32,000 nucleotides of DNA from Nitrosarchaeum sp. Its GTDB lineage: Archaea > Thermoproteota > Nitrososphaeria > Nitrososphaerales > Nitrosopumilaceae. The DNA is taken from the NCBI GenBank assembly GCA_023265135.1, contig JAHFUM010000002.1, positions 20,300 to 52,299 of the forward strand. Reading direction: 5' to 3'. A program made the translations under genes and the position numbers. Under the pieces are notes generated by a model, which was given only the letters and a program-made list of their open reading frames with translations, was not told where the DNA came from and did no database searches. How positions within the stretch are numbered: the first letter of the stretch is position 1; each line of letters opens with the position of its first letter. Below are positions 1 to 22,328 of this stretch, piece by piece.

Positions 1-2169
1 ACTTTATCTCATGCATTGACAGACAAAAAACATACCCTTGAATCAGCATGCTATGCCTTTAAGACAAATTTCAAAAAATACAAATCTCAAAGACATGGCA
101 AAATCACTAAAGATTACATTGATTATTGCATCAATGATGTAAAGTCAACTTACTCATTATATCTAAATGCAAAAAAAGAACTTGACACATACCAATTAGA
201 CATTCCGGTCACTAGGGTATATTCTCCAGCATCAATTGGAAAAGAATTTCTAAAAAAGATTGGAATAAAACCCTTCTTTGATAAAAATCCTAAATTTTCA
301 TTTGAAATGGTTGGAAAAATCATGGTTTGCTATTACGGAGGAAGGACTGAATGCAAGATACGAAAAACTCCAGTGCTGGTAGATGTTTTGGATTTTCTTT
401 CAATGTATCCAACCGTATGCACGTTGATGGATTTGTGGAGATTTGTCATTACTGATAAAATAATTCATCAAGATGTAACCCAAGAAATTCAAAATTTAAT
501 TAACAATTTTACCGTAGAGGACATTCAAGACAAATCACTATGGGAGAAACTTCCCTGCATAGTCCAGTTAGTTCCAGATGAGGATGTTTTACCAATCAGG
601 GTAAAATTTGGCCAAAAGCATGCGTGGAATATCGGAATTTGTAATGTTTCAGGCTCTGAGCCAACATGGTATGGCTTGGCTGATGTTTTGGCATCAAAGA
701 TGCACACAGGAAAATCTCCTAGAATAATTCAGGCAATCAAGTTTGTGCCACAGGGAGTACAAAAAAATCTAAAAGAAATAGAAATTCAAGGAGTCAAGAT
801 AAATCCATACTCTGATGATTTATTTAAAAAACTAATTGAGCACAGAGAAGAACTAAAAAATACTCGAGACTCTTTTGAGAAAGACAGTCAAGATTATCAA
901 TACTATGACAGACAACAAAAAATTATCAAAATCATAACAAATGCAATAAGTTACGGAATATTTGTAGAAATAAACACCTTTGATGAATCGGGTAAAATCC
1001 CAATCGATGTTTATGGGTTGACTCACTTTGAAGATCAAAAAACAAAATCAGAAAAAGTAGGTTACATGTTTAACCCAATCATTGCAGTATCCATTACCTC
1101 ATCAGCTAGATTATTGCTTGCAACAACTGAAGTCTTGTTGAATAAACACAATGCAACTCATGCATACTGTGACACTGATTCCATGGTGATTCCACCAAAA
1201 CACACAAAAGAGATTCAGGAATTTTTCCAACAGTTAAACCCATACAACTTTGATGCTGATATTTTCAAGCTAGAACATCATGAAAAGTGGTTTTATGGAA
1301 TATCATCAAAGAGATATGGTCTTTACACCATTAATAATAAAACAGATGAAATCAAAATTGATGATGAGAAATATTCTGCACATGGACTGGGACATTTACT
1401 TGATCCATTCAAGAATGATCCAGATGATGAATCAATATGGCATAAAGAACTATGGAAAGATATTATTGATTTACATTATGAGAAAATCTCACGAGAAGAA
1501 TTAATTGAAAAATATGGCAACAAGTATGCTATACAGCAATTATCCGTCTCCACTCCAAACATAATTAACAGATTCAAAAAAATTAATCTTGGAAAAGACT
1601 ATCAACATCAGGTAAAACCTTCAAACTTTGCCATTTTGGGATTCTCAAATCGTAAATCCGAGGCTACAGATGAGCCTATCAAGCCATTTGCTCCATATCA
1701 GAATCCTGCAAAACATGCAGTGTATTCCGAATTTGTGGACTATAATGATCCAAATCTGCAAAAGTATCAGGGAAAAGAGTATTGGAAATCAATTTGGGAT
1801 ACAATTGAGGAGTATCTTAGACATCCAGAGTCAAAATTTGATGGGGATGTTGGAGTTTTACAGAGAAAACATGTACGGATATCTTCTATTGTCCACATTG
1901 GTAAAGAGAGCAACGGATTAGACGAATCAGAGTTGTTTGGTTTGGATGATTCCAGTTATGAAATCTATCATGATGATTCAGAGATCGATGAGAAATTCAA
2001 GGCAATTGCTTCAAGAATATTGGAATTAAAACCAAAGGATGTAAAGAAATTTGGAATTTCAAAGCAAACATTATGTAATGTAAAAAAGAATATTGAAACC
2101 AATTGTTTTAATCGAATATCCGTAAGAATTAAAATTCAAATTATCGAATCATATGCTATAATTCAATAA
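1..2169 (+). CDS. Family B DNA polymerase, phi29-like/protein-primed type (pPolB), 5'-truncated by the window edge
   Basis: Frame 1 is open from nt 1, so the TTG at 16 is only an ORF-caller start. Motifs appear in canonical order: ExoIII-like YCINDVKSTYSLY, motif A DFLSMYPT (nt 391-411), motif B KIITNAISYG, motif C YCDTDS (nt 1165-1182, identical to the phi29 motif C string), and KxY as SKRYGLY. ExoI/II must lie upstream of the window. About 280 aa follow KxY. Confidence 0.85.
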   Translation, partial: TLSHALTDKKHTLESACYAFKTNFKKYKSQRHGKITKDYIDYCINDVKSTYSLYLNAKKELDTYQLDIPVTRVYSPASIGKEFLKKIGIKPFFDKNPKFSFEMVGKIMVCYYGGRTECKIRKTPVLVDVLDFLSMYPTVCTLMDLWRFVITDKIIHQDVTQEIQNLINNFTVEDIQDKSLWEKLPCIVQLVPDEDVLPIRVKFGQKHAWNIGICNVSGSEPTWYGLADVLASKMHTGKSPRIIQAIKFVPQGVQKNLKEIEIQGVKINPYSDDLFKKLIEHREELKNTRDSFEKDSQDYQYYDRQQKIIKIITNAISYGIFVEINTFDESGKIPIDVYGLTHFEDQKTKSEKVGYMFNPIIAVSITSSARLLLATTEVLLNKHNATHAYCDTDSMVIPPKHTKEIQEFFQQLNPYNFDADIFKLEHHEKWFYGISSKRYGLYTINNKTDEIKIDDEKYSAHGLGHLLDPFKNDPDDESIWHKELWKDIIDLHYEKISREELIEKYGNKYAIQQLSVSTPNIINRFKKINLGKDYQHQVKPSNFAILGFSNRKSEATDEPIKPFAPYQNPAKHAVYSEFVDYNDPNLQKYQGKEYWKSIWDTIEEYLRHPESKFDGDVGVLQRKHVRISSIVHIGKESNGLDESELFGLDDSSYEIYHDDSEIDEKFKAIASRILELKPKDVKKFGISKQTLCNVKKNIETNCFNRISVRIKIQIIESYAIIQ

Positions 2170-5007
2170 TCAATTATCATATTCTTTAGCATATATCGAT
2201 TTCAAATCATTATTCAATCGTTCATAAACCCAAGATAATACAGGGCAATCATCAAATAGTTCACTTGTGTATGAATGAAAAAGTGAATCTAGTACTGTGT
2301 TGGAATATGATGAAGTATGTTTTAATCCATCGTTAGTTCCAATTAAAAATCCCCAATCATCACTATCTTCATTTACTGTAAATGATTCCGCAGATGAACT
2401 TCTGACTTCAACTACATCTTTTTTCTCATTATTTGTACATATTGCATACCATAATCCACTAATTTCATTATGTCCTTCACTTTTTTCCAATTGAGCTGCA
2501 ATGTAAAAAGAATTACAATATTGTAGTAATTGATTTTTTATACTGGGAAAGTTTGTTTCTACTAGAATTCTGTATTCTTTGATAAAATTATCAAAAAACT
2601 GTTTAACGTACTCAATTAATCTATCTTCAGAATAGTCCTCAGATCTATTGATATGGTACCACCCTTGATGTTTAGGTTTATCACCAAGAGGTAAAAGAGT
2701 TGAACTAATCTCAGTTCCTACCAAAGATAATGTTTTTAGAATTTGATTTATTTCCTTAACAGAAATTGAATTACGATATCCATGTTTTAATCTAACGGAA
2801 GCTTCTTCAGGATTGGAAAAAAATTGCATCATACTTTTGCGTACCTCATTAATTTTTATCGGTAAAACCCAATCTAGAAATCTTTTCTTATATTCTGTCA
2901 ATCCAAACAGAAATGTACAATCTGGAAGTATGCTGAAAAATTTTTCTTTTGCTAATCCCACATTATTTGTTTCATCTAAATTGCGTTTTTTTATCAAATC
3001 TTTAGTTAAATGAAAAATTTTCTTATATGCAGCAGATTCAGTAGACGTGTTTGTAAAATTTTTTGATGATGAAGATAATTGTCTTACTCCATGTTTCCTC
3101 ATCAATTCAAAGTCTCTATCTTTAACCTCAAACCAATCTTTTTTATCATACCAAATTATTGGGTCTTCTCCATTTTCATAAAGTCGAAATCCTTCCCTTG
3201 CTACTACGTTGTATTCTTCATTGTAAAGGATTAACAAACCTAATGATCTTTTATCTGGTACTAATTTTTTAATTATGAAAGGAAATTCCTTTGTTGCTAT
3301 TTCGATAAACTTTTCAAGATATTCATTAGATCTTCTTCTATCATCGGTTTCAAATATTGGAATAAGTATTTCTTTATGTTTTTCATTTTGACATGTTTTT
3401 TTATAAAATTCTAAAATTTCTCTACCCATAGATGTACTGATATGTTTTGATGCAAATTCTTGAATTAATTGTGGACTTAAATTGTCTAATGTTTCCTGAT
3501 GATATGTTATTAGATAATTTCTTAATCCATCTGAACCAAATCTTATTTTTGTTCTTCCTTTTTCATCCTTTTGCGATATTATTATGCCATAATCTTTAAC
3601 AAATGAATGAGCATCAAAATCACTAATTTGAATTTCTGATTCAAAAATTTCATCTTTTTGAAGTTCAAGAAGTATTTTTGTTATGCCTAAAAGATGTGAT
3701 TTAATTCGTTCCTTGTCGATTATGGATTTAGTAAGAATGTTTTCCAAATAATTTTGGAAAATTTTTATTGAATCTAATGTTGATGGTACACCTTTATCTC
3801 TAAAGGTTTCAGCTACAATACGAAGAATAGAGGGATTTTTGCATTCTTGTAAAGTTTGTCCGTGTATTGCATTTTTTAATGAAAAATATTCTTCATATTT
3901 TCTAGTTGCTTCTTGTAATTCTTGTTGGGAAAATTCGTTTAGAGTTAATGAAATTGTATTTTTTTCCTTATCTGTTACAAACAAATTATCTGCTAAACTT
4001 GATGGTATGCCTCTATTTTCTAAAAATTTTTCTAGTTTAGATGTTTTACATGATAAAATAATTTTAAATCTTTTATCTTTAATTCGTCTAAAAAAATTAC
4101 TTAGTTCTACTTCTGCAGTGCTTAAAAACCATTCATCTACTGCATCAATAAATATGAATAATTTTTTATCATGTATTTCTAGAATTTCATTTAATTGTTT
4201 AAAATATTGCTCTTGAAATTTATGTGTAGAAAATTCCCAATCAAAATCATCCGATATACAATCCTCAATTTTTTGAGTTAATTCTGATGCATTATAGAAA
4301 AAAGTAGGATTATTTTTTCGTGATTCTTTTACTAAATCACAAATAGCATTAGTTTTTCCATATCCAGAATTCCCATCTATTATGAGTCCAACATTTTCAC
4401 TATCTACAAATTTGTAAAATGTTGATGTAATTTTACTTCTATTTACATAAACTTCTTGAATATATTTTCGTAAATCATCTTTATTTTGAGTTTCTAATTT
4501 TTTTAAAGTCTCATTATTTTGAAGATTACAAAATATTTCAAGATTTTCATAATTTAATGTAATTAATTTTGAAAGCGCTCTTGATCTAATTTCTGAATTT
4601 ATATCTATTTTATAATTATTCTTTACAAATTTTGATTCAGATAGTTTATCCGACGTTAATTCACTTTCATCAATTGAATCAAAAATTCGTGTAGTTTTTC
4701 CATTAGTAACAATTGCATATGGTGCTTGTGGTTTAACAAGTGAAGCGTAACAAACTGCTTGAGATATGTCTTCTGCTGAAATATCATGTTCCTCCTCTTT
4801 AATTTCAAGGATAAACAAATTCGTTCCATTAACATTAACTAAGATATCATAACGAGGTCGTTTTTCTATTACTTCCCATTTATTTTCATGTGTATATCTA
4901 CCAAGTTTGATTTTGAATGATCGTTCTAATGTTATGTTTTGATGATCTAACCCTAATGCTTCTAAAAAGGGAAGAATGTATTTTACTTTAATTTCTTCTT
5001 CAAGCAT
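2170..5007 (-). CDS. PD-(D/E)xK nuclease (HsdR-N/Mrr-like) fused to a NACHT/STAND-type P-loop NTPase and a large unassigned C-terminal domain; NLR/Avs-like candidate
   Basis: N-terminus: KYILPFLEALGL...RPRYD54ILV...LFILE68IK70...ISQAVCYA...YAIVTNGK matches the HsdR N-terminal restriction-endonuclease-like pattern (D...ExK). Walker A is DGNSGYGKT (aa 211-219, nt ~4351-4377) and Walker B is LFIFIDAVDE (aa 283-292). NACHT-like downstream signatures are KIILSCKT, LTLNEFSQQELQEATRKYEEYF and CKNPSILRIVAETF. Residues ~400-945 have no motif I recognise and no obvious TPR/WD40/LRR periodicity. Confidence 0.75.
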   Translation of the reverse strand: MLEEEIKVKYILPFLEALGLDHQNITLERSFKIKLGRYTHENKWEVIEKRPRYDILVNVNGTNLFILEIKEEEHDISAEDISQAVCYASLVKPQAPYAIVTNGKTTRIFDSIDESELTSDKLSESKFVKNNYKIDINSEIRSRALSKLITLNYENLEIFCNLQNNETLKKLETQNKDDLRKYIQEVYVNRSKITSTFYKFVDSENVGLIIDGNSGYGKTNAICDLVKESRKNNPTFFYNASELTQKIEDCISDDFDWEFSTHKFQEQYFKQLNEILEIHDKKLFIFIDAVDEWFLSTAEVELSNFFRRIKDKRFKIILSCKTSKLEKFLENRGIPSSLADNLFVTDKEKNTISLTLNEFSQQELQEATRKYEEYFSLKNAIHGQTLQECKNPSILRIVAETFRDKGVPSTLDSIKIFQNYLENILTKSIIDKERIKSHLLGITKILLELQKDEIFESEIQISDFDAHSFVKDYGIIISQKDEKGRTKIRFGSDGLRNYLITYHQETLDNLSPQLIQEFASKHISTSMGREILEFYKKTCQNEKHKEILIPIFETDDRRRSNEYLEKFIEIATKEFPFIIKKLVPDKRSLGLLILYNEEYNVVAREGFRLYENGEDPIIWYDKKDWFEVKDRDFELMRKHGVRQLSSSSKNFTNTSTESAAYKKIFHLTKDLIKKRNLDETNNVGLAKEKFFSILPDCTFLFGLTEYKKRFLDWVLPIKINEVRKSMMQFFSNPEEASVRLKHGYRNSISVKEINQILKTLSLVGTEISSTLLPLGDKPKHQGWYHINRSEDYSEDRLIEYVKQFFDNFIKEYRILVETNFPSIKNQLLQYCNSFYIAAQLEKSEGHNEISGLWYAICTNNEKKDVVEVRSSSAESFTVNEDSDDWGFLIGTNDGLKHTSSYSNTVLDSLFHSYTSELFDDCPVLSWVYERLNNDLKSIYAKEYDN

Positions 5008-5043
5008 TTAATTATACATAATCTAGGAGTGTACTAAATTTAT

Positions 5044-5400
5044 CTACATCATTTTGTTTGGATTGTAAAAGTCATCAATAACACGCAATGCTCTTTCTAA
5101 CACTTCTTGTATTGTATCTTCAGATATTCCAATAGACATACTGCCAATCCCTTTAATTTTAGATACGCTTGAGTCAGACCAAAGAAGTGTTGTAGAATAT
5201 CTGATTTTTTTACCATCCCAATCCTTATAGATCAAAAGTGGAATGTATTGATTTGAATAAGTTGTATACAAGTTCCAGTTTCCAACTAATTGACTCAGTC
5301 TATAGAATGTCGGGTGTTTATTCATTATATCTGTCAAATCTTCAACAGGTACTAAATTTTGAATTACTACTTTTTTATCGATGTCTAATATATCTGTCAT
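5044..5400 (-). CDS. Hypothetical 118-aa protein, first gene of the two-gene module with the nuclease-NTPase
   Basis: ATG-initiated ORF on the same strand, ending 36 nt upstream of the 945-aa gene start. It shares the same extreme AT-richness and has no recognisable motifs. Confidence 0.55.
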   Translation of the reverse strand: MTDILDIDKKVVIQNLVPVEDLTDIMNKHPTFYRLSQLVGNWNLYTTYSNQYIPLLIYKDWDGKKIRYSTTLLWSDSSVSKIKGIGSMSIGISEDTIQEVLERALRVIDDFYNPNKMM

Positions 5401-5514
5401 ATTACAGCATTCAATTCATTCTTGAAATATCTTGTGTTTGATTTAGTTTTGAGTGATATGAACATCTGTTTTATTTTGAATGTTTTTGTAATTTTTTACT
5501 CCAGAAAAAGGTCA

Positions 5515-5548
5515 AATGGCACCTCTCTGTCTTTACCCCCGCGCCATT
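5515..5548 (-). terminator. GC-rich stem-loop followed (minus strand) by a T5 tract; possible terminator of the padR/FMN-reductase transcript, or an element-end/att remnant
   Basis: AATGGC (5515-5520) pairs with GCCATT (5543-5548) around a pyrimidine-rich loop. It contains CCCCCGCGCC (5536-5545), highly atypical for this AT-rich DNA. On the minus strand the hairpin is followed by TTTTTC. Confidence 0.3.
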
Positions 5549-5656
5549 GATTTTTCATATTGTCGATTATTCAATTAATCTAATTATCTCCAATTCCCGA
5601 TTAATGGGAAATCTTTGTATGAATAAAGCAAAAAAGATATTTGTTCACTAGTTGAA

Positions 5657-6241
5657 TTATTTTCCATAATGTTTGGAAAATGAATTTGAAACATCACTTT
5701 TCAAATCCTGCAAAAATTGGTTTCTAATAATTTCTCCATATACAGTCAAATCTCGTGAAAGCATTGTCAATCTAGATTTTAATTGCAAATTTTTTATTTC
5801 TCCATTTTCAAAATCTTCTTCACCATTAATTGATACACCGTAAGGCATGCTCCATCCATAACACTGTCGTATTGCAGTTCTCATTTGATCCATTGCAGTT
5901 AATCCTTTTTCATGCGATGCACAAATGTAGCCAAATAATTTACCGGCAAATTCTGACCAATAGTAATCCAAAAAATTTTTCATGGAACCTGCCATCGAAC
6001 CATGATAATCTGGCGTTGCCAGAATAAATGCATCTGCCCACTTTACCATTTCTGTAGCCTTGCGAATATTCTCAGTTTTTTCAGTTGTGGAATAAAACAT
6101 CGGTAATGGAGTTTTCTGTAAATTCAAAAATTGAATCTCCGCTCCATTCTCTTTTGCATTATTCAAAGCAATTTCCAATCCTTTCGCACTAGAGGAAAAT
6201 TCTCGCATGCTTGAGCTAACTCCTAAAACTTTGATCGTCAT
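5657..6241 (-). CDS. NAD(P)H-dependent FMN reductase family oxidoreductase
   Basis: MTIKVLGVSSS...FILATPDYHGSMAGSMKNFLDY is the typical flavin-reductase pattern. I prefer the ATG at 6241 (MTIKVLGV) over the upstream ATG at 6268 that starts the supplied ORF; the 6241 start overlaps the padR stop by 4 nt. Confidence 0.8.
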   Translation of the reverse strand: MTIKVLGVSSSMREFSSSAKGLEIALNNAKENGAEIQFLNLQKTPLPMFYSTTEKTENIRKATEMVKWADAFILATPDYHGSMAGSMKNFLDYYWSEFAGKLFGYICASHEKGLTAMDQMRTAIRQCYGWSMPYGVSINGEEDFENGEIKNLQLKSRLTMLSRDLTVYGEIIRNQFLQDLKSDVSNSFSKHYGK

Positions 6242-6543
6242 GGAAAAACTCCTAAAAATATTTGACAAAATTTTCTTTTTGCAATGGTAAGAGCTTTTTT
6301 TCCGGATGGAGTAAGAGTATATGTGATTGTTTTCCCTTCTTTTTTTTCATCGAGAAAACCCGCCTCTCTTAAATTTTTTATAGATGGATAAAGAGTTCCT
6401 GGACTTGGTCTTTCTCCTTTTCTCTTTGTAATTTCTTCGGAAATTTCTTGCCCATGCATGGGTTTTTTTGATAATAAAAACAGAATTAGAAAACCAAGCA
6501 TCCCCCTCATATCACAACATTCTTCATCCATTTTTATATTCAT
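6238..6543 (-). CDS. padR: PadR-family winged-helix transcriptional regulator
   Basis: GFLILFLLSKKPMHGQEISEEI...SPGTLYPSIKNLREAGFL...KTITYTLTPSGKKAL is the canonical PadR N-terminal wHTH pattern. Translationally coupled to the reductase gene. Confidence 0.85.
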   Translation of the reverse strand: MNIKMDEECCDMRGMLGFLILFLLSKKPMHGQEISEEITKRKGERPSPGTLYPSIKNLREAGFLDEKKEGKTITYTLTPSGKKALTIAKRKFCQIFLGVFP

Positions 6544-6548
6544 TAAAT

Positions 6549-6607
6549 ATATCGTATAACCGATATATATAAATACAATTTATGAGTATGTATCGTATGT
6601 CCGATAT
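6549..6607. promoter_or_regulatory. Two copies of a TATCG-N6-CGATA palindrome in the divergent padR / small-ORF intergenic region (candidate PadR operators)
   Basis: ATATCGtataacCGATAT at 6549-6566 and TATCGtatgtcCGATA at 6591-6606. Both share TATCGTAT..CCGATAT. They sit 6-64 nt upstream of the padR start and 22-80 nt upstream of the ATG at 6629. Confidence 0.35.
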
Positions 6608-6628
6608 TGATGGAAAGGAGGTGATTGT

Positions 6629-6781
6629 ATGGGTAATGGATGTTGCGGGGTAAGATTGCAAAATGTAAGAAGCTTTCTTACTAAAGAAGAGAGAATAGGA
6701 ATGTTAAATGAATACAAAGAGTATCTTGAAAAAGAGGCTCAAGGAGTTTCTGAGAGGATAAAAGATCTTGAAGACGAGTAA
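6629..6781 (+). CDS. Small 50-aa protein (MGNGCCG... then a charged helix), DUF5320-like in style
   Basis: ATG preceded by an unusually strong SD-like GGAGGTGA (6617-6624). Translation: MGNGCCGVRLQNVRSFLTKEERIGMLNEYKEYLEKEAQGVSERIKDLEDE. Below the ORF-track length cut-off and divergent from padR. Confidence 0.45.
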   Translation: MGNGCCGVRLQNVRSFLTKEERIGMLNEYKEYLEKEAQGVSERIKDLEDE

Positions 6782-6791
6782 AACTCTCACC

Positions 6792-7059
6792 TCATTTTTT
6801 CTCACTAAAGGTCGTTATTTTTTCAAAATAATCTAATTTTTCATCTCTGCTTTCAAAACCATCAGTACATATCGTTCCAGACTCAAAAAACGTCATTTTC
6901 ATACAGACGTAGTTTTTTGTCATCTTTGCTTACAAGATTTTGATGATATCCAATTTCTTTTACTCTAAACAAACCACATTCACCATGAAGATGTTTTGAT
7001 AGTGGATCTTTTTGAATATGACACTCTGAGCATTGATTAATCTTGTAGCCCAAGAACAT
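6792..7059 (-). pseudogene. Small Cys/His-containing gene interrupted by a frameshift in an A6/T6 homopolymer
   Basis: ATG at 7059 gives MFLGYKINQCSECHIQKDPLSKHLHGECGLFRVKEIGYHQNLVSKDDKKLRLYENDVF, stopping at 6883. Skipping one T in the T6 run (A6 at 6885-6890 on the plus strand) continues as ESGTICTDGFESRDEKLDYFEKITTFSEKK to the stop at 6792. Confidence 0.35.
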
Positions 7060-7216
7060 CTTATCCTTATCTAAGGATCTGTTCTTCCGAATTCACCTTT
7101 ACAACATTTACTGCATCTCCTTTAATCCGTTTGTTTTAATCATTACGGCGTATCTCTCTGTAAATACAGTAAGAAACTGGTCTGAACATAACTAAAAGAA
7201 ATTGTAGAATCTATGA

Positions 7217-7238
7217 ACTGAGTCCCACATGTAGGATT
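7217..7238 (+). promoter_or_regulatory. Copy 1 of a shared 22-bp motif ACTGAGTCC-N8-GGATT, upstream of the ArsR-type operon
   Basis: ACTGAGTCCCACATGTAGGATT, flanked by 8-bp direct repeats CTATGAAC (7211-7218 and 7242-7249). It matches 8529-8550 at 17/22 positions. Confidence 0.35.
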
Positions 7239-7364
7239 AAGCTATGAACATATTAGTAATTAGATTGGCAATTTACCATACATGTACATTGGAGGAGAAC
7301 ACACACAGTATCATTCAAATGAATTTTCGCTAAGTTTTTGTTATATTACTAATAATGATAATCA

Positions 7365-7730
7365 TTGTCAGTTATTAACGACTCAAAATTCAAGAAATCA
7401 ATTTTATCTGCTCTTGCGGATGAGGATATGATTCAGATAATAAAACATGCAACAGATAATCCAATATCTGGTAACGATATAATAAAACTATGTAACATTC
7501 CCCATAGCACTGCATATAGAAAAATAAAATGGATGTTAGAAACTGAGTTGCTAACAATTAAAGAGATAAAATTTACAAATGATGGAAAAAAATATACCTT
7601 ATTTCAAAGCACAATACATTCAATCAATGTAAATATGGAAAAAGGTGGAAATATGATAGTTACAGCTACAAAAAATATTGGTGCAAAACAGTTTATTGCA
7701 AAGAGATTTCTCTCGATGGATATAGAATAA
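7365..7730 (+). CDS. ArsR/winged-HTH family transcriptional regulator
   Basis: SILSALADEDMIQIIKHATDNPISGNDIIKLCNIPHSTAYRKIKWMLETELL has a wHTH layout. TTG start as called; an alternative in-frame ATG lies at codon 22. Confidence 0.65.
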   Translation: MSVINDSKFKKSILSALADEDMIQIIKHATDNPISGNDIIKLCNIPHSTAYRKIKWMLETELLTIKEIKFTNDGKKYTLFQSTIHSINVNMEKGGNMIVTATKNIGAKQFIAKRFLSMDIE

Positions 7731-7731
7731 C

Positions 7732-8022
7732 ATGGAAGACACAAGTTTGAATATATTTAATGCAATTTTGATTTTATCAATAGGTGCAATACCTGCGTTT
7801 TTAGCTTTAAAGACAAGTGGAAATGTCAGAATTCTCTTAATCACCTTAACACTATTCACCATAATTCATGGCATCTATCACTTGTCCGATGCTATGGGCT
7901 TAGATGTCTTGGCAGACTCTGTTTTTCGACCTATTTCAGTTGGAATTTTGATAATATTTGGACTTATTGGATTTAAAATGGGAAGAAAAAATACTATGAA
8001 ACAAGGTACAATGAAACATTGA
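7732..8022 (+). CDS. Small integral membrane protein (about 3 TM segments, HGIYH motif)
   Basis: Hydrophobic segments ILILSIGAIPAFLAL, ILLITLTLFTIIHGIY and ISVGILIIFGLIGF. Starts 1 nt after the regulator's stop codon. Confidence 0.6.
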   Translation: MEDTSLNIFNAILILSIGAIPAFLALKTSGNVRILLITLTLFTIIHGIYHLSDAMGLDVLADSVFRPISVGILIIFGLIGFKMGRKNTMKQGTMKH

Positions 8023-8354
8023 CCTACAATGAATTATTTACACTATTGATTACAGATACAACATTACATTTGCTTGTAGTGGCACTAGGAATTTTTAGTA
8101 TATTAGCCATAAAATCCCATAATGTTCGGAGCTTTCAATTTCAATTATCAATTTTTATTATAATTTGGATAGTAGGTGAAATTTTACATGTTTTTGGCGA
8201 ATCAAACTTCTCACCATACCAAAACCTGGATCAATTATCTCCAATTATTCATACTATTTCCATGATTTCAATCAGTCTTGTCTTTTTGCTGCGATATATC
8301 TATGTCAAAAAGGATGAAAAAAAGTTCATAGCAAACATTGAGAACCAAGATTAA
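8019..8354 (+). CDS. Small integral membrane protein (about 3 TM segments)
   Basis: The TTG start overlaps the upstream stop (TTGA) and there is no in-frame ATG. Hydrophobic segments LHLLVVALGIFSILAI, LSIFIIIWIVGEILHVF and ISMISISLVFLL. Confidence 0.55.
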   Translation: MTYNELFTLLITDTTLHLLVVALGIFSILAIKSHNVRSFQFQLSIFIIIWIVGEILHVFGESNFSPYQNLDQLSPIIHTISMISISLVFLLRYIYVKKDEKKFIANIENQD

Positions 8355-8528
8355 TCAAGACTCATGAAAAATTTCCATAATGCAAAGATTATCCGATATC
8401 ATGAATAAGCTAATCAAATATTACATTTCTTATCAAATCAATTATGATAATTTGTTTTTAATTTTTTAACCTTTATCATATTTTTTCATTAAAATTATTT
8501 TGTATATGTAGATACACTGTATTTTCAT

Positions 8529-8550
8529 ACTGAGTCCATTTTGTGGGATT
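8529..8550 (+). promoter_or_regulatory. Copy 2 of the shared 22-bp motif, 45 nt upstream of the cupredoxin gene
   Basis: ACTGAGTCCATTTTGTGGGATT. Same ACTGAGTCC ... TGT.GGATT core as 7217-7238. Confidence 0.35.
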
Positions 8551-8595
8551 CGTCGTTTTACTTAATACCTTCATCTTGCTACAGATAAACAACTA

Positions 8596-9144
8596 ATGAA
8601 TCGCACTTCAAAAATAGCAATCATTTCAAGTATTGTAGCTGTTGTAATTATTTCGGCAGCATTAACTGTGCATTTCAGACTATCAGAAACGGAAAAATCT
8701 GAAATTACATCAGGATCTGAACAAAATGAAAAAGAAAGTGCAAGTCAAGTAGCAAATGAGATTGTAAATAGTCTTCAAAACAAGCCAGAGTCAAAAGAAA
8801 ATGAGAATACAGAACCAGGTGAAAGTATGGCAAATACAAATAGTCAAACTGAGATTTCTGTAAAAGAAATTGATGAAGTGTACCGATGGTCAAATTCCAC
8901 TGAAACCAATCCTGCTATAACACTTACAGCAAATATAGACAATGTCATTCAGTTTACAAATCCAACTGATGCAAAACATGCATTCATAATTGAAACTGGT
9001 GAAAAAGAATCTCTGGCAGATTTTGATATTGGCTCTAATTCTACCGGAAAACTAACATTAAAACCCACTAAAACAGGTATTTTTGAATATCATTGTGAAT
9101 ATCACCCAGATACAATGAAAGGAATTCTCAACATAATACCATAA
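8596..9144 (+). CDS. Membrane-anchored plastocyanin/cupredoxin-like blue copper protein
   Basis: N-terminal TM anchor IAIISSIVAVVIISAAL, a low-complexity acidic linker, then a type-1 Cu ligand pattern: AKHAF ... YHCEYHPDTMKG (H ... C-x2-H-x3-M). Confidence 0.8.
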   Translation: MNRTSKIAIISSIVAVVIISAALTVHFRLSETEKSEITSGSEQNEKESASQVANEIVNSLQNKPESKENENTEPGESMANTNSQTEISVKEIDEVYRWSNSTETNPAITLTANIDNVIQFTNPTDAKHAFIIETGEKESLADFDIGSNSTGKLTLKPTKTGIFEYHCEYHPDTMKGILNIIP

Positions 9145-9222
9145 AATAATTTTTTATACCACATGTTTTAGTTTAAGAATTTAATTTTTTACCAAGTTAG
9201 CTTGGGCAAAAAAATTTAGCTC

Positions 9223-10704
9223 GTGGAATCACAAAAGCATATAAGGCAAATCCAAAGTTTTGTTCCAAACATGCGACAAAAAAAGCAAAATTCTCAACCA
9301 AATCAAAAATTTCACGATGAGAAAATCAAAGTTGCAATCTATTCAATAGTTGCATCTGCCGCACTTACAATTCTAAAGTTATCTGTTGGATTTTCCATCA
9401 ATAGTCTTGGAGTCTTGTCTGAAGCATTCCATTCTGGATTGGATATTGTTGCAGCAGTCATGACATTTTATGCAATACGTATTGCAATGCGACCGCATGA
9501 TTTGAGGTACACATATGGTTATGCAAAACATGAAAGTCTTGCAAGTTTAGCTGAAATAATTTTGTTGTTTATTGTTGCAGGATGGGTGTTTTATGAAGGA
9601 ATACACAGAATATTTTACGAGTCGATCCAACCAGATGTGACAATTTTTTCAATAGGGATAATGGTTGTCTCAATTGTAGTGGACTTTGGAAGATCAAAGG
9701 CCCTATACCGCGTTGCAAAAAAATCTCAAAGTCAGGCATTAGAAGCAGACGCACTTCATTTCAAAGCAGACATGATTACTTCTGCTATAGTTATTGTGGG
9801 GCTCTTGGCTGTATTTCTATTACACATTCCTAATGCAGATGCATATGCTGCACTCATCGTTGCCGGCATGATTATCTATACATCACTTGGACTTGGTAGA
9901 AGAACATTGGATGTTCTTTTGGACAAGGCACCAAAAGGAGTTTACACAAAGATAATTGATTCAATTTCTGATCTTGAGGGGGTTGTACGAACACACGATA
10001 TTCGTGTAAGACAGGTAGGACCGCAAACCTTTGTAGATTTACATATTGAAGTTCCACGAACTTATACTCACTCCAGAGCTCATGATGTTGCTACATCTGT
10101 TGAAGAAAAAATAAGAAAAACTATTCCATCTTGTGATGTGTTAGTGCATGTAGATGCAATAAAGGGAAAAAATGAAACAATAATGGACAGAGTTAGACTT
10201 GTTGCAGGTGAAACTGAAGGCATAAGAAATGTCCATTCTACATATCTGTCTACAGTTGAAAAAAATGAATTAAAAAACAAAGACCTCCATCTCTACCTGG
10301 ATGTCCAGATGGACAATAATTTGGAGTTTAAAAAAGCTCATGATATTATAGATAAATTTGAAAACCAAGTCAAAAACAAAATACCTGAAATTAAAAACAT
10401 TACAACACACATTGAAACAGAAGTTGACGAAAATATCCCTGTTGGAACAGAAAAACCACCTGACAAATCTATTTTAGAAACGATACGAAATTTAGCTCTG
10501 TCGGTAGAGACAGTCAAAGAATGCAAAGATATTGGAATGATCTCTGTAAATGATGAACTACACATTACACTTACGATAAAAATTTTATCATCTGAAAAAA
10601 ATTTAACAGTAGAGGATGCACATAAAATTGCTACAGCTGTTCAAAACTTGATCATAAAAGACCTTGGAGCATCAAGAGTAATAGTACATACAGAGCCAAC
10701 ATGA
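9223..10704 (+). CDS. Cation diffusion facilitator (CDF) family metal efflux transporter with three tandem cytoplasmic-domain-like repeats
   Basis: Six-TM core with HSGLD (TM2) and HFKAD (TM5) metal-site motifs and YGYAKHESLASL. GTG start as called; an alternative ATG lies at 9271. The C-terminal tail is roughly twice the usual length. Confidence 0.9.
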   Translation: MESQKHIRQIQSFVPNMRQKKQNSQPNQKFHDEKIKVAIYSIVASAALTILKLSVGFSINSLGVLSEAFHSGLDIVAAVMTFYAIRIAMRPHDLRYTYGYAKHESLASLAEIILLFIVAGWVFYEGIHRIFYESIQPDVTIFSIGIMVVSIVVDFGRSKALYRVAKKSQSQALEADALHFKADMITSAIVIVGLLAVFLLHIPNADAYAALIVAGMIIYTSLGLGRRTLDVLLDKAPKGVYTKIIDSISDLEGVVRTHDIRVRQVGPQTFVDLHIEVPRTYTHSRAHDVATSVEEKIRKTIPSCDVLVHVDAIKGKNETIMDRVRLVAGETEGIRNVHSTYLSTVEKNELKNKDLHLYLDVQMDNNLEFKKAHDIIDKFENQVKNKIPEIKNITTHIETEVDENIPVGTEKPPDKSILETIRNLALSVETVKECKDIGMISVNDELHITLTIKILSSEKNLTVEDAHKIATAVQNLIIKDLGASRVIVHTEPT

Positions 10705-11060
10705 TACAAAAAAATTCGCAAGTTAACTAAATAATTTTAGCAAAAATCATAAAATTTAGATGTATTTTGATTCAAATCTATGTTAATTAATTTAACATCT
10801 TTTTCTGTAATCTTTTTGAATCTCTACTGGTAAATTATTTTATGTCGTCTATTTTCTAAAATTATTTTTTTAATTTATACACAATGCATATACAAGATTT
10901 ATCATTTTTGTATATGTGTTAATTTCATATCTGATTCCATTTAACACTTTTAATTTTAGAACAGGTAATGTGCAATTAAACCATGTTCAATAAATTTCAT
11001 TTTAGGAAATAACTTTCCAGTGATTAAGAGATAAAAAAAATTTGATTATTTAGAATAACA

Positions 11061-11303
11061 CTATTTGCCAGCTTGTTCTCTGACTTTTTTGGCAAGGTCT
11101 CCAAAAGGATCCTCATGCCATTTTTCTTTGTTTAATTGGGCACCTAAACCCGATGGTGATACAATTGGTCCTTGTACTGTCGCAGGTGCTGGAACCGCGT
11201 CCTTTGGGATATAGCTTTGCTGGTTTTGTGTTCCATAAGCTATTGCTCCTGCCATTGCTGCAACTCCAATTGCAATTCCTACGTATATCATATAATTTGC
11301 CAT
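11061..11303 (-). CDS. Small membrane-anchored hypothetical protein (80 aa)
   Basis: N-terminal TM segment MIYVGIAIGVAAMAGAIAYG and locally higher GC than the ORF-free flanks. The overlapping 11113..11310 ORF in another frame is less protein-like. Confidence 0.5.
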   Translation of the reverse strand: MANYMIYVGIAIGVAAMAGAIAYGTQNQQSYIPKDAVPAPATVQGPIVSPSGLGAQLNKEKWHEDPFGDLAKKVREQAGK

Positions 11304-11677
11304 TAGTCATTATTTGAAAAATATGTATTAATCAAGTAGGATTGCATTGCACTCATTTTTAAGAAATTACATGTTTTGATTGATTTTTTTAATATTATTA
11401 TATTGAAATATTTTGAAATCTAGCATAAGATATTTCAGAGATGGATAAAATGCTCTCTAGATAATACATGATTCATCTAACTATTCATTAGAAAGTATCC
11501 AAAATATAATTTGGTTAAACTATAATCAGTATAATTAACATCTGTTATTCAATTAATTCTTTTACTGATCGGATTTATCTTTAATTTACTTATAATTTTC
11601 GAGAATATGTTTTACAAAAGAATAAACATATCTATTATTTTAGATCTAGTTAAATTCAAGTTATTTTATTTAATATT

Positions 11678-14824: not shown

Positions 14825-15697
14825 ATGCATGAATTTAGTCTAAATTTTATAAGGTGTATACGATGTGGCTCTAAATTAGAATTAGATGTCTTTAAAAAAG
14901 AGTCCGAGATTGAAGAAGGAATTTTGGAATGCAAGAGTTGCACTCTATGTTTTCCAATAATCAAAAAAATTCCAATTCTTTGGGATGATTTTTCAAAGTA
15001 CATCTCTGAGCGAATGATGCTAGGTGGAAAATTATACCACTCTGTATCGCATGATAAAATGAAAAAATTTCTTAAACATTCTCTTTCTAATTCTAAACGG
15101 GGTGTTGATGATAGAACAGCACTTGAAGAAAGATGGACAAAAATATATCAAAACAGCCAAAAATCAAAATTTTACTCTACAATTAAAAACGAATTAAACA
15201 CTTTGTCAAAATCAAAACTTGTTTTAGAATATGGTTGTTCTATTGGAATCATTACCAATTTTCTTGCAGACTCTAATCAAAATGTATTTGGAATTGATAG
15301 ATCATTTAGTGCAATCAGTCTTGCAAAAAAAACACAAAAAGACAATCTGGATTATTTTGTATCTGATTTACTGTTTGATGTTTTTGGAAAGACAAAATTT
15401 GATTTGATTCTAGCCCTGAATGTTTTAGAATTAGTAGAGCCGAAAGATTTGCTGAAGCATATTTCTCAACAAATTTCTAAAGGCACCATTTTACTATCTG
15501 ATCCTTATGATTTTGAAAGAGGCAAAAATTCGGTTAAAAAACCACTTGACGAATCAGTATTGAGAATAAGTTTGGAAGAATTTGGGTTTACCATTGCTGT
15601 AAAGACAAAAACACCTTCATTTCTGACCTGGAATCTGAAACTAAATCCACGCTCAACTTTAAACTATAAAGTAGATTTGATAATTGCAAAAAAATGA
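14825..15697 (+). CDS. Trm112-like zinc ribbon fused to a class I SAM-dependent methyltransferase
   Basis: The N-terminus CIRCGSKLE...LECKSCTLCFPIIKKIPIL has the Trm112/DUF343 pattern. Motif I is VLEYGCSIGIITNFL, with a post-I acidic residue in VFGIDRS. Confidence 0.75.
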   Translation: MHEFSLNFIRCIRCGSKLELDVFKKESEIEEGILECKSCTLCFPIIKKIPILWDDFSKYISERMMLGGKLYHSVSHDKMKKFLKHSLSNSKRGVDDRTALEERWTKIYQNSQKSKFYSTIKNELNTLSKSKLVLEYGCSIGIITNFLADSNQNVFGIDRSFSAISLAKKTQKDNLDYFVSDLLFDVFGKTKFDLILALNVLELVEPKDLLKHISQQISKGTILLSDPYDFERGKNSVKKPLDESVLRISLEEFGFTIAVKTKTPSFLTWNLKLNPRSTLNYKVDLIIAKK

Positions 15698-16278: not shown

Positions 16279-16301
16279 TTTAGTACTAAATTTCTAAAAT
16301 G

Positions 16302-16353
16302 ATATTTTGTTAAATGATATTAAAATAATATTTTGTTAAGTGATATTAAAATA
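16302..16353. repeat. Perfectly adjacent tandem duplication of a 26-bp unit (1 mismatch) upstream of the etf/fix operon
   Basis: ATATTTTGTTAAATGATATTAAAATA (16302-16327) and ATATTTTGTTAAGTGATATTAAAATA (16328-16353). About 70 nt upstream of the etfB ORF start; a TATA-like TTTTATAAAT follows at 16377-16386. Confidence 0.9.
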
Positions 16354-16425
16354 ATTTGCAGATTCTGTTTGAAACATTTTATAAATCCGGAGAATTTCTA
16401 TTGGAAATTTTTTTAAAAATGAATT

Positions 16426-17379
16426 GTGATGATAAAAGGCATATCATTGTTCATTAACACTTATAAACTGAATTTTAAAAAAAATCGCATAGCCGAACTT
16501 AACTTAGCAGTAGTAGTTAAATTAGAACCGGATTTGTCAGCAGGTAGCATAAGCTATAATCCAGATGGAACACTAAACAGAAGTAAAACAAAGAATACAT
16601 TAGGTCCACACAGTAAAATCGCTACACAGGCAGCATTTTATGCAAAGGTGAAATATGGTGCAAAAATTTGTGTTGGTAGCATGAGTGGACATGCAGCTAA
16701 CAATGCCTTACAGATAGCTATGGAAACTTGTGATGCTGATGTTCTTCACTTGTATAATGATCCAAGCTTTGCAGGTGCAGATACTATCGGTACTGCCGAG
16801 GTTCTAAGAAAGGGCGTTGAAAAAATGGAAGGAACAATGGAGAAAAAAATGGATATTGTGTTTTCAGGACATCGCGCGACAGACGGAGAAACAGGTCAAA
16901 CGGGTCCACAAATCGCATGGAAATTGGGACTAACATTTCTTGGCAATGTTATCAGTTATGATGTTGATTTAGAAAAACGAACTGTAACTGCAAAACGTTT
17001 GTTGATTTTGCGAGGAGTTCCAGAAATTATTCAAGAAATAGAGGCACCTCTTCCAGTTTTTATCGCAATTGATCCTTCATACAAATATCATTTCAATACA
17101 GTTTCTCTAAGATTATCTGCTGAAAAATATAAAAAAGAAGCGTATGAAAAAGCACAGAATTATCAGCAATATATTCATACATTTAATCGTGAAGAACTAG
17201 GTGCTGAAAAAACACTCATAGGATTAGTAGGATCACCAACCATTGTATACAATGTACAGCGTGTACCAAAAGGAAAAGCTATTAGAAATGCCAAAGTACT
17301 CGATGGCTCCAACCCTGAACATATTCGTCAAACAGTTACGGCAATAAAAGAAGCACTTTCCGCAATGGTGATAAAATGA
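16426..17379 (+). CDS. etfB: Electron transfer flavoprotein beta subunit (EtfB/FixA-like)
   Basis: LAVVVKLEPD... and the N-terminal adenine-nucleotide-hydrolase-like region are typical of EtfB, and the gene sits before etfA with a 4-nt overlap. The ORF has a ~25-aa extension before the usual M-K-I-x-V-x-V-K start and no canonical start codon occurs closer in. GTG at 16426, ATG at 16429. Confidence 0.8.
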   Translation: MMIKGISLFINTYKLNFKKNRIAELNLAVVVKLEPDLSAGSISYNPDGTLNRSKTKNTLGPHSKIATQAAFYAKVKYGAKICVGSMSGHAANNALQIAMETCDADVLHLYNDPSFAGADTIGTAEVLRKGVEKMEGTMEKKMDIVFSGHRATDGETGQTGPQIAWKLGLTFLGNVISYDVDLEKRTVTAKRLLILRGVPEIIQEIEAPLPVFIAIDPSYKYHFNTVSLRLSAEKYKKEAYEKAQNYQQYIHTFNREELGAEKTLIGLVGSPTIVYNVQRVPKGKAIRNAKVLDGSNPEHIRQTVTAIKEALSAMVIK

Positions 17380-18566
17380 CAGAAGGAGACTATCGTCATG
17401 TATATGTTGTAATAGAGCATATTGATGGAAAATTACTTCCTGTGAGCCTTGAAATGTTAGGAGAAGCAAGAAGGTTATTTGATGACTTTAATACAAGATA
17501 CTCTTCAAAAGAAAAAGTTGTTGCAGTACTTTTAGGTCATAACATTAAAGACTTATCCCAAACATTGATTGAACATGGTGCTGATTCAGTAGTAATAGTA
17601 GACCGTCCGGAACTAGATGCACTAATAAACAAAATTCACACCAAGGTAATTTGTCAAATTTGTTTGGATGTAGAAACTTCCGCAAAAATTGAACCTGCTT
17701 ATGCTTTGGAATTTAAAAGACCACGATACATGTTTTTTGCAGCAGATGGCATTGGGCGACATTTGTCCTCTACAGTTTTAGCCGAACTAGATTCCGGTTT
17801 AGCATCCGATGTTAACCAACTTGTGATTTCTGATTTAGACATAAGTCATCCAATTAAAACTGGTGGAAAACACATAATTTACAAAAAAACATTGGAAATG
17901 TATAGAGTCGATTTTTCAGGATTTTTATGGACCACAATTCTCTGTCTTGATAATATCAATGAAAATCTTTCAATGAGAGAATATTCCCCTCAATCTTGTA
18001 ACATTATTCCGGGTGCCTTTATACCTAAAGAAAGAGATCCGCAAAGAAAAGGAAAGGTAATCGAGTTTCAACCTAAAATAGATGAGAATGATTTGAAAAT
18101 CAAAGTTTTGAGTCAAAAGTTTGTAGAAAACGAAATTGATTTTGATAACTACAAAACAGTTGTTAGTTTTGGGCGTGGAATTCAAGATGCACCAGAAAAA
18201 AACATCAAACTTATTGAGGAATTTGCCAAGCAACTTAATGCCCAAGTCGGCATATCTTTGCCTATTGCAAAAAATGTTTTTACAGCAAGTCCTGCCGTTA
18301 CTTCAAATTATATGATTCCCTCTCGAGTTATTGGAACTAGTGGTAGAAAAATCAGCCCTATGCTTTACATAGCATTTGGAATAAGCGGGGCAATGCAGCA
18401 TGTATCTGGAATGGAAGATTCACAGTTTGTTATTTCAGTTAATGCAGATGAAAATTCTCCTGTGAAGGATGTCTCTGATATTTTTCTTAAAGGTAGAATG
18501 GAGGATGTAATCCCTCTATTGATGGAGGAACTCAAAAATCAGCAAATTACTTTACAGGTAAAATAG
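17376..18566 (+). CDS. etfA: Electron transfer flavoprotein alpha subunit (EtfA/FixB-like)
   Basis: The C-terminal FAD-binding signature VIGTSGRKISPMLYIAFGISGAMQHVSGMEDSQFVISVNADENSPV matches the ETF-alpha consensus (QVGQTGK...LYIA.GISGAIQH..GM). Confidence 0.9.
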   Translation: MTEGDYRHVYVVIEHIDGKLLPVSLEMLGEARRLFDDFNTRYSSKEKVVAVLLGHNIKDLSQTLIEHGADSVVIVDRPELDALINKIHTKVICQICLDVETSAKIEPAYALEFKRPRYMFFAADGIGRHLSSTVLAELDSGLASDVNQLVISDLDISHPIKTGGKHIIYKKTLEMYRVDFSGFLWTTILCLDNINENLSMREYSPQSCNIIPGAFIPKERDPQRKGKVIEFQPKIDENDLKIKVLSQKFVENEIDFDNYKTVVSFGRGIQDAPEKNIKLIEEFAKQLNAQVGISLPIAKNVFTASPAVTSNYMIPSRVIGTSGRKISPMLYIAFGISGAMQHVSGMEDSQFVISVNADENSPVKDVSDIFLKGRMEDVIPLLMEELKNQQITLQVK

Positions 18567-18567
18567 A

Positions 18568-20409: not shown

Positions 20410-20435
20410 TTTAGATTAATACTAAAAAATCAAGT

Positions 20436-20810
20436 TTAACTTAATTTTGGATTTTTGCGTATCAAGTTTTCAACTTGTTCAATCACTGTTTTATACTCTG
20501 TATCAGGCTCTATGCTAATTCGTAAATATTTTCCATCATTAAGCGAGAACGTCAAAAGTGTAGCCTTTTCATATTTTACCATAGCATACTTTGAATCGCC
20601 CAACTGTTTATGAAACATTTTGTAAGTTTCCCATCGTCGTATATCATAGCGGACTGAATTTTGCATTTCATCCATACTTAAATGAGGTATGGTGCCAGGC
20701 TGATAACCATCAACAATTTTTTCAAACTTGTCATCATACATGCCTGCGAATCTAATTGAACGATCATCCACCTTCAAAACCTCCATCAAAAATTCACAAT
20801 GTTCCACCAT
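20436..20810 (-). CDS. Hypothetical protein (124 aa)
   Basis: ATG-initiated ORF with normal composition. There is a faint Roadblock/LC7-like N-terminal pattern that I cannot substantiate. Confidence 0.5.
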   Translation of the reverse strand: MVEHCEFLMEVLKVDDRSIRFAGMYDDKFEKIVDGYQPGTIPHLSMDEMQNSVRYDIRRWETYKMFHKQLGDSKYAMVKYEKATLLTFSLNDGKYLRISIEPDTEYKTVIEQVENLIRKNPKLS

Positions 20811-20930
20811 TTTTCATAATTGGTATTATATTTTAATTATTTGCTAATTCGCACTTTTGCAAATCATGATCTTATAAAGTATGACTCTACTCTTTATGAG
20901 GCATTAAATGATATAAAGATCAAAATAAAG

Positions 20931-21827: not shown

Positions 21828-21855
21828 TGTATATTTCCTACTTTGATTCTTGCTA

Positions 21856-22254
21856 CTAACTTGGAGGCTTTTGATGAAAAACTTTTACAGGACGTATTTT
21901 TATTATTATTCTCTTTTCAGTTGGACTTCTAAATGGATATTTGTCTAATCCAAGATATCTTTTTGCCAATTTGTCAATGTGCATATCCGCATTTTCCTCA
22001 GTAATTTCATCTACAATTCCTCTAATTGTAACCATTTCATATGGGTTAGATTCGTTTGGGATTGACAATGCAATTCGTTTGTCATGTCTCACATTTTTTT
22101 CCTTTATTCTATCAGCAGCAGTATTAATCAACACATAGTGTCCATCATAGTCAATCCAAGTAGGAGCAACATGTGGTGACCCATCATTCATCAGGGTTGC
22201 AAAAGATGCAAAATTCTTCCCTAAGAGAAGCTTTTCGATTTCTGGTGTAATCAT
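21856..22254 (-). CDS. Pyridoxamine 5'-phosphate oxidase (PPOX) family flavin/F420-binding protein
   Basis: FASFATLMNDGSPHVAPTWIDYDGHYVLINTAADRIKEKNVRHDKRIALSI ... VTIRG is a split-barrel PPOX-class pattern. Confidence 0.75.
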   Translation of the reverse strand: MITPEIEKLLLGKNFASFATLMNDGSPHVAPTWIDYDGHYVLINTAADRIKEKNVRHDKRIALSIPNESNPYEMVTIRGIVDEITEENADMHIDKLAKRYLGLDKYPFRSPTEKRIIIKIRPVKVFHQKPPS

Positions 22255-22328
22255 TGAACTAATTTGGATATTCTCATTATTATTGATTTTATTCCTGTTT
22301 TATTCATCATGGGGATCTGAATCATGTG

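Follow-up and report, generated by a model that had tools for sequence, protein, structure and literature searches.

The 32,000-nucleotide stretch of Nitrosarchaeum sp. DNA analysed here (the window; G000:C15:20300-52299, contig JAHFUM010000002.1) opens inside a gene for a family B DNA polymerase (PolB). The analysis indicated that this gene very probably belongs to an intact family-2 casposon, inserted behind a tRNA-Ser(GCT) gene in a Nitrosopumilus-type ammonia-oxidising archaeon. Casposons, self-replicating transposons that use a Cas1 integrase, are presumed to have given rise to the CRISPR adaptation machinery; to our knowledge few intact ones have been documented in ammonia-oxidising archaea. 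The contig was followed further left of the window, and positions on this extended locus are given as L003 coordinates (window coordinate + 10000). Measured from the ends of its terminal inverted repeats (TIRs), the element spans G000:C15:12090-25838, that is, 13,749 bp or window positions -8209 to 5539. It has an internal Cas1 integrase, its own PolB, and TIRs with a target-site duplication (TSD), the features by which casposons are recognised. The parts of the element and its insertion site are as follows (ORF, open reading frame; HTH, helix-turn-helix; wHTH, winged HTH).

C15:12075-12088: left TSD copy, CCGCGCCATTGATT, covering the last 8 nt (5 without CCA) of tRNA-Ser(GCT)
Gene order from the tRNA side, left part: ORFs of 233, 86, 372, 299 and 276 aa, then a 22-nt tandem repeat
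Gene order, continued: Cas1 (minus), 236-aa wHTH protein (minus), 166-aa HTH protein (plus), 112-aa HNH protein (plus), PolB (plus), 945-aa protein (minus), 118-aa protein (minus)
Window 1..2169, plus strand: 3' part of the PolB gene (its final 722 codons of 910), whose open frame continues beyond the left window edge
Window 2170..5007, minus strand: 945-aa gene; PD-(D/E)xK (HSDR_N/Mrr-like) nuclease at the N-terminus, then a STAND/NACHT-type P-loop NTPase, then some 450 C-terminal aa to which no domain could be assigned
Window 5044..5400, minus strand: 118-aa ORF, upstream of the 945-aa gene and co-oriented with it; conserved partner
Window 5505..5539, no strand: right TIR, 35 nt, 32/35 complementary to the left TIR at G000:C15:12090-12124
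Window 5539..5552, plus strand (as the sequence is read): right TSD copy, CCGCGCCATTGATT; the TIR boundary is ambiguous by 1-3 nt

The TIR pair (35 nt, 32/35 complementary, L003:1791-1825 and 15505-15539) was the top inverted repeat of 20 kb. Its terminal 18-mer is identical at the two ends and occurs in exactly two copies in the 1.8-Mb genome, one per casposon end; the conserved TIR termini read GGGGTA[A/T]AGA.. A perfect 14-nt TSD, CCGCGCCATTGATT, abuts both arms on the outer side, and no copies beyond these two were found in C15:5000-45000. The tRNA-Ser(GCT) gene lies at L003:1697-1783, the left arm begins 7 nt later, and the T-loop TTCAAAT sits 23 nt ahead of the insertion point. No CRISPR-like array was seen in direct- or tandem-repeat scans of the casposon locus. 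An earlier sequence-only reading of the window had taken the PolB to mark an integrated self-replicating element, with window 1 to about 5500 as its right arm, the nuclease-NTPase module as its cargo and its end between 5401 and 5656. Each of these points was borne out: the right end, TIR and TSD together, falls at window 5505-5552, and the TIR ends at 5539. The leftward extension and the repeat search that the reading had proposed yielded a Cas1 casposase 1.8 kb upstream of PolB, the 35-nt TIRs and the 14-nt TSD.

Base composition was a less clear guide. The GC content of the casposon is 30.3% against 33.2% for the genome (3.5th percentile among equal-sized windows), a difference driven by the NTPase gene (27.1%, 0.3rd percentile of genome windows); the PolB gene itself, at 32.7%, is not distinguishable from the genome. 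The criterion is therefore only partly informative.

The five core genes are all open over their full length, and catalytic residues are preserved. Cas1 (404 aa, minus strand) matched PF01867 in Pfam at E 8.5e-55, and its best PDB match was the casposase of M. mazei (6OPM, E 8.6e-74), which aligned over residues 2-390 of 404 with the C-terminal HTH included, whereas the best CRISPR Cas1 in the same search reached only 2e-29. The catalytic motifs SHE(165), GFLH(239)E and YD(251)LQE(254) are kept, with residues E165, H239 and D251/E254. The 112-aa ORF gave HNH matches in PHROG (best E 2.4e-5) and contains CxxC..HH..CxxCH, and the 166-aa and 236-aa ORFs gave weak HTH_7/TnsD and weak wHTH matches in Pfam, respectively. 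Moreover, the core order Cas1(-), HTH, small HNH-like ORF, PolB(+) recurs at four other loci. Identities for these four proteins in turn are 86/73/78/73% in a Nitrosopumilus metagenome-assembled genome (MAG; L040) and 36/30/31/42% in Methanococcoides sp. (L073); Nitrosotalea sinensis (L041) and a metagenome contig (L042) likewise show detectable core homology.

Family 2 is defined by a Cas1 with an HTH, a PolB whose C-terminus bears a similar HTH, a nuclease of the HNH type and a pair of HTH proteins, and several of its members are inserted behind tRNA genes (Krupovic 2014, PMC4046053). Here we found a Cas1 with a C-terminal HTH, a PolB with an HTH and the CDTDS motif, an HNH protein with two HTH proteins, and a target at the 3' end of a tRNA gene. 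This set, together with TIRs, is common to the known family-2 casposons AciBoo-C1 of Aciduliprofundum boonei, those of Methanosarcina mazei and NitNCS1-C1 of Ca. Nitrosotalea okcheonensis (PMC4046053, PMC6563490), which are likewise inserted behind a tRNA gene over its last nucleotides, with a T-arm segment directly upstream of the duplicated segment, a TSD of about 14-15 nt and a size of 6-16 kb. In addition, at its N-terminus Cas1 agrees with AciBoo-C1 and MetArv-C1 in the published alignment and not with NitAR1 or NitSJ. The Cas1-HTH, the core gene set, the tRNA 3'-end target and the 14-nt TSD therefore place the casposon in family 2. Unlike the known members, its target is tRNA-Ser(GCT) rather than tRNA-Pro or tRNA-Leu, its host is Nitrosopumilus-type, its cargo is element-specific, and neither of its HTH proteins showed the C-terminal HEAT-repeat domain that has been described for one such protein in family 2. 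The one family-2 element in a 2019 survey of mobile elements in Thaumarchaeota lies at tRNA-Pro and has a fragmented PolB (PMC6563490), unlike the intact PolB of the present one. No census of thaumarchaeal mobile elements later than 2019 was found, and we make no claim of a first.

The same genome also carries two family-1 casposons, back to back at G000:C2:94176-112379, outside the window, with the following genes (pPolB, protein-primed PolB).

C2:94176-96050, plus strand: pPolB, 625 aa
C2:101281-102462, minus strand: Cas1
C2:103447-104550, plus strand: Cas1
C2:110550-112379, plus strand: pPolB, 610 aa

On PF03175 the C2 pPolBs (610-625 aa) reach 73-88 bits, and they cluster with His1; the N-termini of the C2 Cas1 proteins match the published NitAR1-C1 row. 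The studied Cas1 is only 27-28% identical to these two; it has an HTH and is without the NitAR1-like N-terminal motif that the C2 Cas1 genes have. Furthermore, the TIR sequence and the target are unlike those of NitAR1, NitAR2 and NitSJ, and the studied PolB lies outside the His1-related pPolB clade (arCOG15271). The thaumarchaeal family-1 casposons (NitAR1-C1, NitSJ-C1, NitNF5-C1/C2) have in common with the studied element the host group, Cas1 and PolB, TIRs with a TSD, and variable nuclease or defence-like cargo. In contrast to it, their Cas1 is compact and carries no HTH, their pPolB (about 600 aa) is sister to those of His1/His2, their TIRs are different, and their targets are ef-2 or other protein genes. 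A family-1 label had been accepted initially, on the presence of Cas1 and PolB in a thaumarchaeon; it was dropped once the 6OPM alignment and the alignment in the 2014 supplement revealed a family-2 casposase.

The occurrence of the element in related genomes was then compared. Of the 30 further species genomes in the genus, 5 contain this PolB type, which in part of them is fragmentary. In one complete-genome congener, G024:C1:413814-414116 holds the last ~100 PolB codons (69% identity) with an in-frame TGA; this fragment is a casposon remnant. The closest relatives, G007 and G001 (about 80% left-flank identity), are without the casposon. None of the 30 other genomes contains the right flank (window 5553-11648), and collinearity with G007 starts again only at window 11648. 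Genes in this flank include padR, an FMN reductase, an ArsR-type operon, a cupredoxin and a CDF transporter. The sequence-only reading had expected a normal padR/reductase operon here; the padR and FMN reductase genes are indeed present, but in a strain-specific stretch. A second block, window 16299-22317, is likewise missing in G007, and both blocks may be further islands.

The 3' end of tRNA-Ser(GCT) is a recurrent integration hotspot in the genus. In G001, G003, G014 and G021 the site is unoccupied, with the conserved native flank directly after the tRNA gene. The casposon of L040 occupies the same tRNA-Ser(GCT) in the opposite orientation, with its own 14-nt TSD, CGCGCCATTAAAAC. In G007:C10 the same tRNA gene is followed by an unrelated insert of 5.6 kb (L034:12955-18584); the direct repeats at its borders, each about 36 nt long, suggest an att site of the integrase type. 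Another TIR was at first suspected in GTGTAGATAGTTGGGGCAT, which follows tRNA-Ser in relatives, but this sequence more probably represents the native flank of the gene, and its duplication in G007 forms a long att repeat of the 5.6-kb insert.

A truncated Cas1 gene, covering residues 196-401 only and 65% identical to the studied Cas1, lies at G000:C25:4670-5463 (L007, an 8.8-kb contig), and the TIR-like end on that contig, GGGGTATAGACAAGG.., lies 23 nt after the T-loop of another tRNA gene. This copy is probably a decayed second family-2 casposon. The TIR begins 23 nt past the T-loop TTCAAAT in all three cases (the studied casposon, L040 and, at the other tRNA, the C25 copy). The TIR 18-mer gave 28 matches in public collections, and only three of these are true relatives: L047, a Ca. 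Nitrosotenuis MAG, and the metagenome contigs L053 and L063, in which the TIR terminus matches at 18/18 positions and the similarity extends to about 35 nt. ARAGORN found no tRNA beside the matches in these three. L053 has the same CCCCGCGCCATTGATT flank without a tRNA body, and L047 and L063 have a 'GGTTCAAAT-N23' flank in which ARAGORN calls no tRNA; at a similar site, G000:C15:147295, there was no tRNA or Rfam match. As an unproven lead, the 'GGTTCAAAT-N23' flank could represent tRNA remnants or a recognition motif that is also used at non-tRNA sites.

The full PolB gene (G000:C15:19736-22468, 910 aa) starts 564 nt left of the window. In full-length numbering, its exonuclease motifs are ExoI (DTET at 40), ExoII (N120/D124) and ExoIII (Y230/D234), and its polymerase motifs are A (DFLSMYP at 319), B (K498..N502..S505-Y506-G507), C (YCDTDS at 577) and KxY (KRY at 625). 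These motifs are invariant in all 27 homologues aligned; homologues at E <= 0.001 numbered 1,363. The sequence-only reading had noted ExoIII, A, B, C (YCDTDS) and KxY with a phi29-like distance from ExoIII to motif A, and this description was confirmed (85-89 aa). The ExoI position and the A-to-B and B-to-C distances are 40, 179 aa and 81 aa in this PolB, compared with 9, 134 aa and 73 aa in phi29, 228, 86 aa and 52 aa in the chromosomal PolB on C18, and 124, 115 aa and 61 aa in that on C17; in His1, ExoI is at residue 35 and A-to-B is 137 aa, with B-to-C not found. This spacing, with ExoI at 40 and long A-B and B-C intervals, is compatible with TPR1/TPR2 insertions. About 283 aa follow the KxY motif and end in an HTH-like segment, ..KKFGISKQTLCNVKKN.., which resembles the C-terminal HTH of Cas1, ..KKLGINKSTFWYMKKN.., with 13/25 positions matching. 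An AlphaFold2 model built on the 27-sequence alignment (predicted local distance difference test, pLDDT, 88) matched family B polymerases at E 1e-12 to 1e-15.

The type of this polymerase was assessed with profiles and a tree. PF00136 scored 25 bits on the casposon PolB, in the motif B region only, against 177 and 112 bits on the chromosomal PolBs (C18, C17), and PF03175 scored 45.6 bits in the ExoIII-motif A region, against 15.5 bits on the C18 enzyme. A profile search against the PDB gave only short motif-B matches, to archaeal and eukaryotic PolBs, and phmmer against the PDB gave nothing useful. An RNA-primed (rPolB) label, read from these PDB matches and PF00136, was dropped on the mixed PF03175 signal, and neither label fits. 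In an IQ-TREE tree of 15 sequences, three clades were recovered: His1 with the two C2 pPolBs (100/99), the two chromosomal PolBs (99/99), and the casposon PolB with its homologues, including the Methanococcoides casposon PolB (100/100). Relations among the three had support of 69/63, with long branches. A 'PolB_CDTDS' cluster has been described as related to both the main and the protein-primed groups; it includes the A. boonei casposon PolB and lies between rPolB and pPolB (Kazlauskas et al. 2020, PMC7544198). The studied PolB shares with this cluster the CDTDS motif C, the casposon origin and the similarity to primer-dependent and protein-primed groups (PMC7544198), and its mixed signal appears to fit that description; membership was deduced from the motif, the casposon context and the 42%-identical Methanococcoides homologue, and the published set was compared by its description.

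These data bear on the claim that the element is a family-1 thaumarchaeal casposon with a phi29-type protein-primed PolB, for which a gene directly upstream would supply the terminal protein. Several features speak for it. With ExoI at residue 40, the polymerase is without an N-terminal domain, like phi29 and His1; its A-B and B-C intervals are long, and it has YCDTDS in common with phi29. Foldseek against viral models placed His1 PolB first (E 2.3e-15), 16/27 homologues match PF03175, as does the ExoIII-motif A part of PolB itself, and hhalign of the family profile gave probabilities of 82% and 51% to the C2 pPolBs and 38% to His1, against 15% and 4% to the chromosomal PolBs (7% to phi29). 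However, the genuine family-1 pPolBs of the same genome, with their higher PF03175 scores, join His1 and the studied PolB does not, while its Cas1, with a family-2 HTH and 27-28% identity to the family-1 proteins, and its TIRs and target differ from those of family 1. The gene directly upstream of PolB encodes the HNH nuclease, and no terminal protein was recognisable, the ORFs upstream being HTH and HNH proteins by Pfam and PHROG. Foldseek against the PDB placed Pol zeta, Pol alpha, Pyrobaculum PolB and phi29 all within one order of magnitude, without a preference for phi29. We therefore consider this explanation highly improbable: the 'phi29-type' label was not established, and family-1 membership was contradicted by the Cas1 HTH, the Cas1 identity, the core set, the tRNA target and the 14-nt TSD. 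The sequence-only reading had offered a casposon or a spindle-shaped virus. For a provirus of a spindle-shaped or other linear-genome archaeal virus with a protein-primed PolB, the His1 match and TIRs compatible with a linear replicon could be cited; yet none of the 12 casposon ORFs matched a capsid, packaging or other viral family (PHROGs, Pfam), tblastn of PolB against 50,697 phage and archaeal-virus records gave no match, and the integrase is a Cas1 with a 14-nt TSD. The casposon half of that alternative stood, and we give the viral half almost no chance. No more credit is due to an ordinary, immobile chromosomal replicative or repair PolB paralogue, for which the genome-like GC of PolB and the weak PF00136 match would speak. 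Two chromosomal PolBs exist elsewhere, with far higher PF00136 scores and a clade of their own, and the studied gene lies between TIRs next to Cas1 and occurs in 5/30 congeners only; the earlier statement that it is not the chromosomal replicase agrees with this.

A casposon relic, integrated in the past by the casposase and now immobile, with genes persisting or co-opted by the host, is unlikely but deserves more weight. The TIRs mismatch at 3/35 positions, and decay does occur, as seen in the truncated C25 copy and the PolB remnant of a relative. Several further observations weigh against an intact, mobile family-2 casposon. The 30 congeners yielded no empty site that has the same right flank, the joined-flank 29-mer had no exact match in metagenome contigs, and no excision product could be shown; the comparison with related genomes thus answered the earlier proposal in part, the closest relatives being without the casposon. 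A clean empty site could not be shown because the right flank is strain-specific. Recent mobility is supported solely by the perfect TSD and the intact genes. The family-2 label, with respect to AciBoo-C1 and NitNCS1-C1, follows the published definition and not a direct protein alignment. The 236-aa wHTH protein had no detectable sequence match in the other casposons compared, and PADLOC contained no model matching the 945-aa STAND protein and returned no Avs match. Against a relic stand the five full-length core genes with intact catalytic residues, the perfect TSD and the identity of the terminal 18 nt of both TIRs, which together favour the intact family-2 casposon.

Because both genes lie between the TIRs, the nuclease-NTPase gene and its 118-aa partner are cargo of the casposon. 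The 945-aa protein matched HSDR_N_2 in Pfam (E 1.2e-8), with a weak NACHT match, and had 10 homologues only, some with nSTAND Pfam matches. Its structural model (pLDDT 74, moderate) matched the folds of NLRC4, NLRP and Avs4 (8dgf). Avs4, with its N-terminal Mrr-like nuclease, has the same domain order of PD-(D/E)xK nuclease, STAND NTPase and large C-terminal domain; in the model comparison 8dgf aligned with the 945-aa protein over about 950-1000 columns, with low TM-scores of 0.27-0.28. Unlike Avs, it lacks a PADLOC Avs match and has a conserved partner gene. Judged by its domains and modelled fold, the 945-aa protein is an Avs-like candidate defence protein, for which a defence role is inferred. 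The 118-aa ORF had no family match in Pfam, PADLOC or PHROG, and PADLOC and PHROGs gave nothing for the cargo genes.

The 118-aa and 945-aa pair recurs in metagenome contig L042, with 86% and 78% identity. There it lies within a few kb of a casposon Cas1 gene, and the core proteins of that casposon are just 39-50% identical; placement of the pair in it is by proximity. The pair appears to move as a module between casposons. Moreover, the slot directly after polB is occupied by the nuclease-STAND pair here, by an OLD-like ATPase in L040 and by ApeA-HEPN in L041, candidate defence genes of nuclease type that differ from one compared element to the next. The cargo on the tRNA side consists of five element-specific ORFs (233, 86, 372, 299 and 276 aa), two of which have chromosomal paralogues, and no viral or defence matches were obtained for the five in Pfam, PADLOC or PHROGs. 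Surface-protein-like genes are among the casposon cargo.

A mechanism can be proposed by analogy with characterised casposases. As for those of A. boonei and M. mazei, the casposase would bind the conserved TIR termini GGGGTA[A/T]AGA.., and the part of the tRNA gene that encodes the T-arm would serve it as a leader-like motif. For A. boonei, integration depends on this T-arm-coding part, located upstream of the duplicated segment, for its direction (review PMC9939771), and the studied site is arranged in the same way. The casposase would make joins staggered by 14 bp, and their repair would produce the duplication and leave the tRNA intact, and the casposon would be copied by its own PolB. The absent N-terminal domain and the TPR-sized insertions would leave room for a primer-independent or protein-primed start of this polymerase. 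The STAND-nuclease pair is probably an antiviral sensor-effector, which would benefit both the host and the element.

These findings extend the known picture and do not change it. They describe a complete family-2 casposon in a Nitrosopumilus-type genome, beside two family-1 casposons, and add tRNA-Ser(GCT) as a casposon target, where the 23-nt T-arm spacing fits the leader-plus-repeat logic shared with CRISPR integration. Such casposons carry candidate immune genes, and the intact protein set is suited to studying the priming of CDTDS-type polymerases. Tentatively, and with more doubt than confidence, we speculate that family-2 casposons are common in Nitrosopumilaceae, in view of the 1,363 PolB homologues, and serve as vehicles for immune genes and, secondly, that the CDTDS PolB starts without an RNA primer, either protein-primed or de novo. 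If true, a primer-independent CDTDS PolB would be contrary to the original assignment of family 2 to RNA-primed PolB3.

Left of the window, the interval that separates the cas1 3' end from the beginning of the 276-aa cargo gene contains 6.6 copies of the 22-nt unit TGGAATCATAATGAAATCATTC, with 99% identity (G000:C15:16401-16545, L003:6102-6246). The L040 casposon has a related AATCATAAT[G/A]AAAT motif and other tandem repeats at the corresponding position. The tandem repeats behind cas1 may be protein-binding sites.

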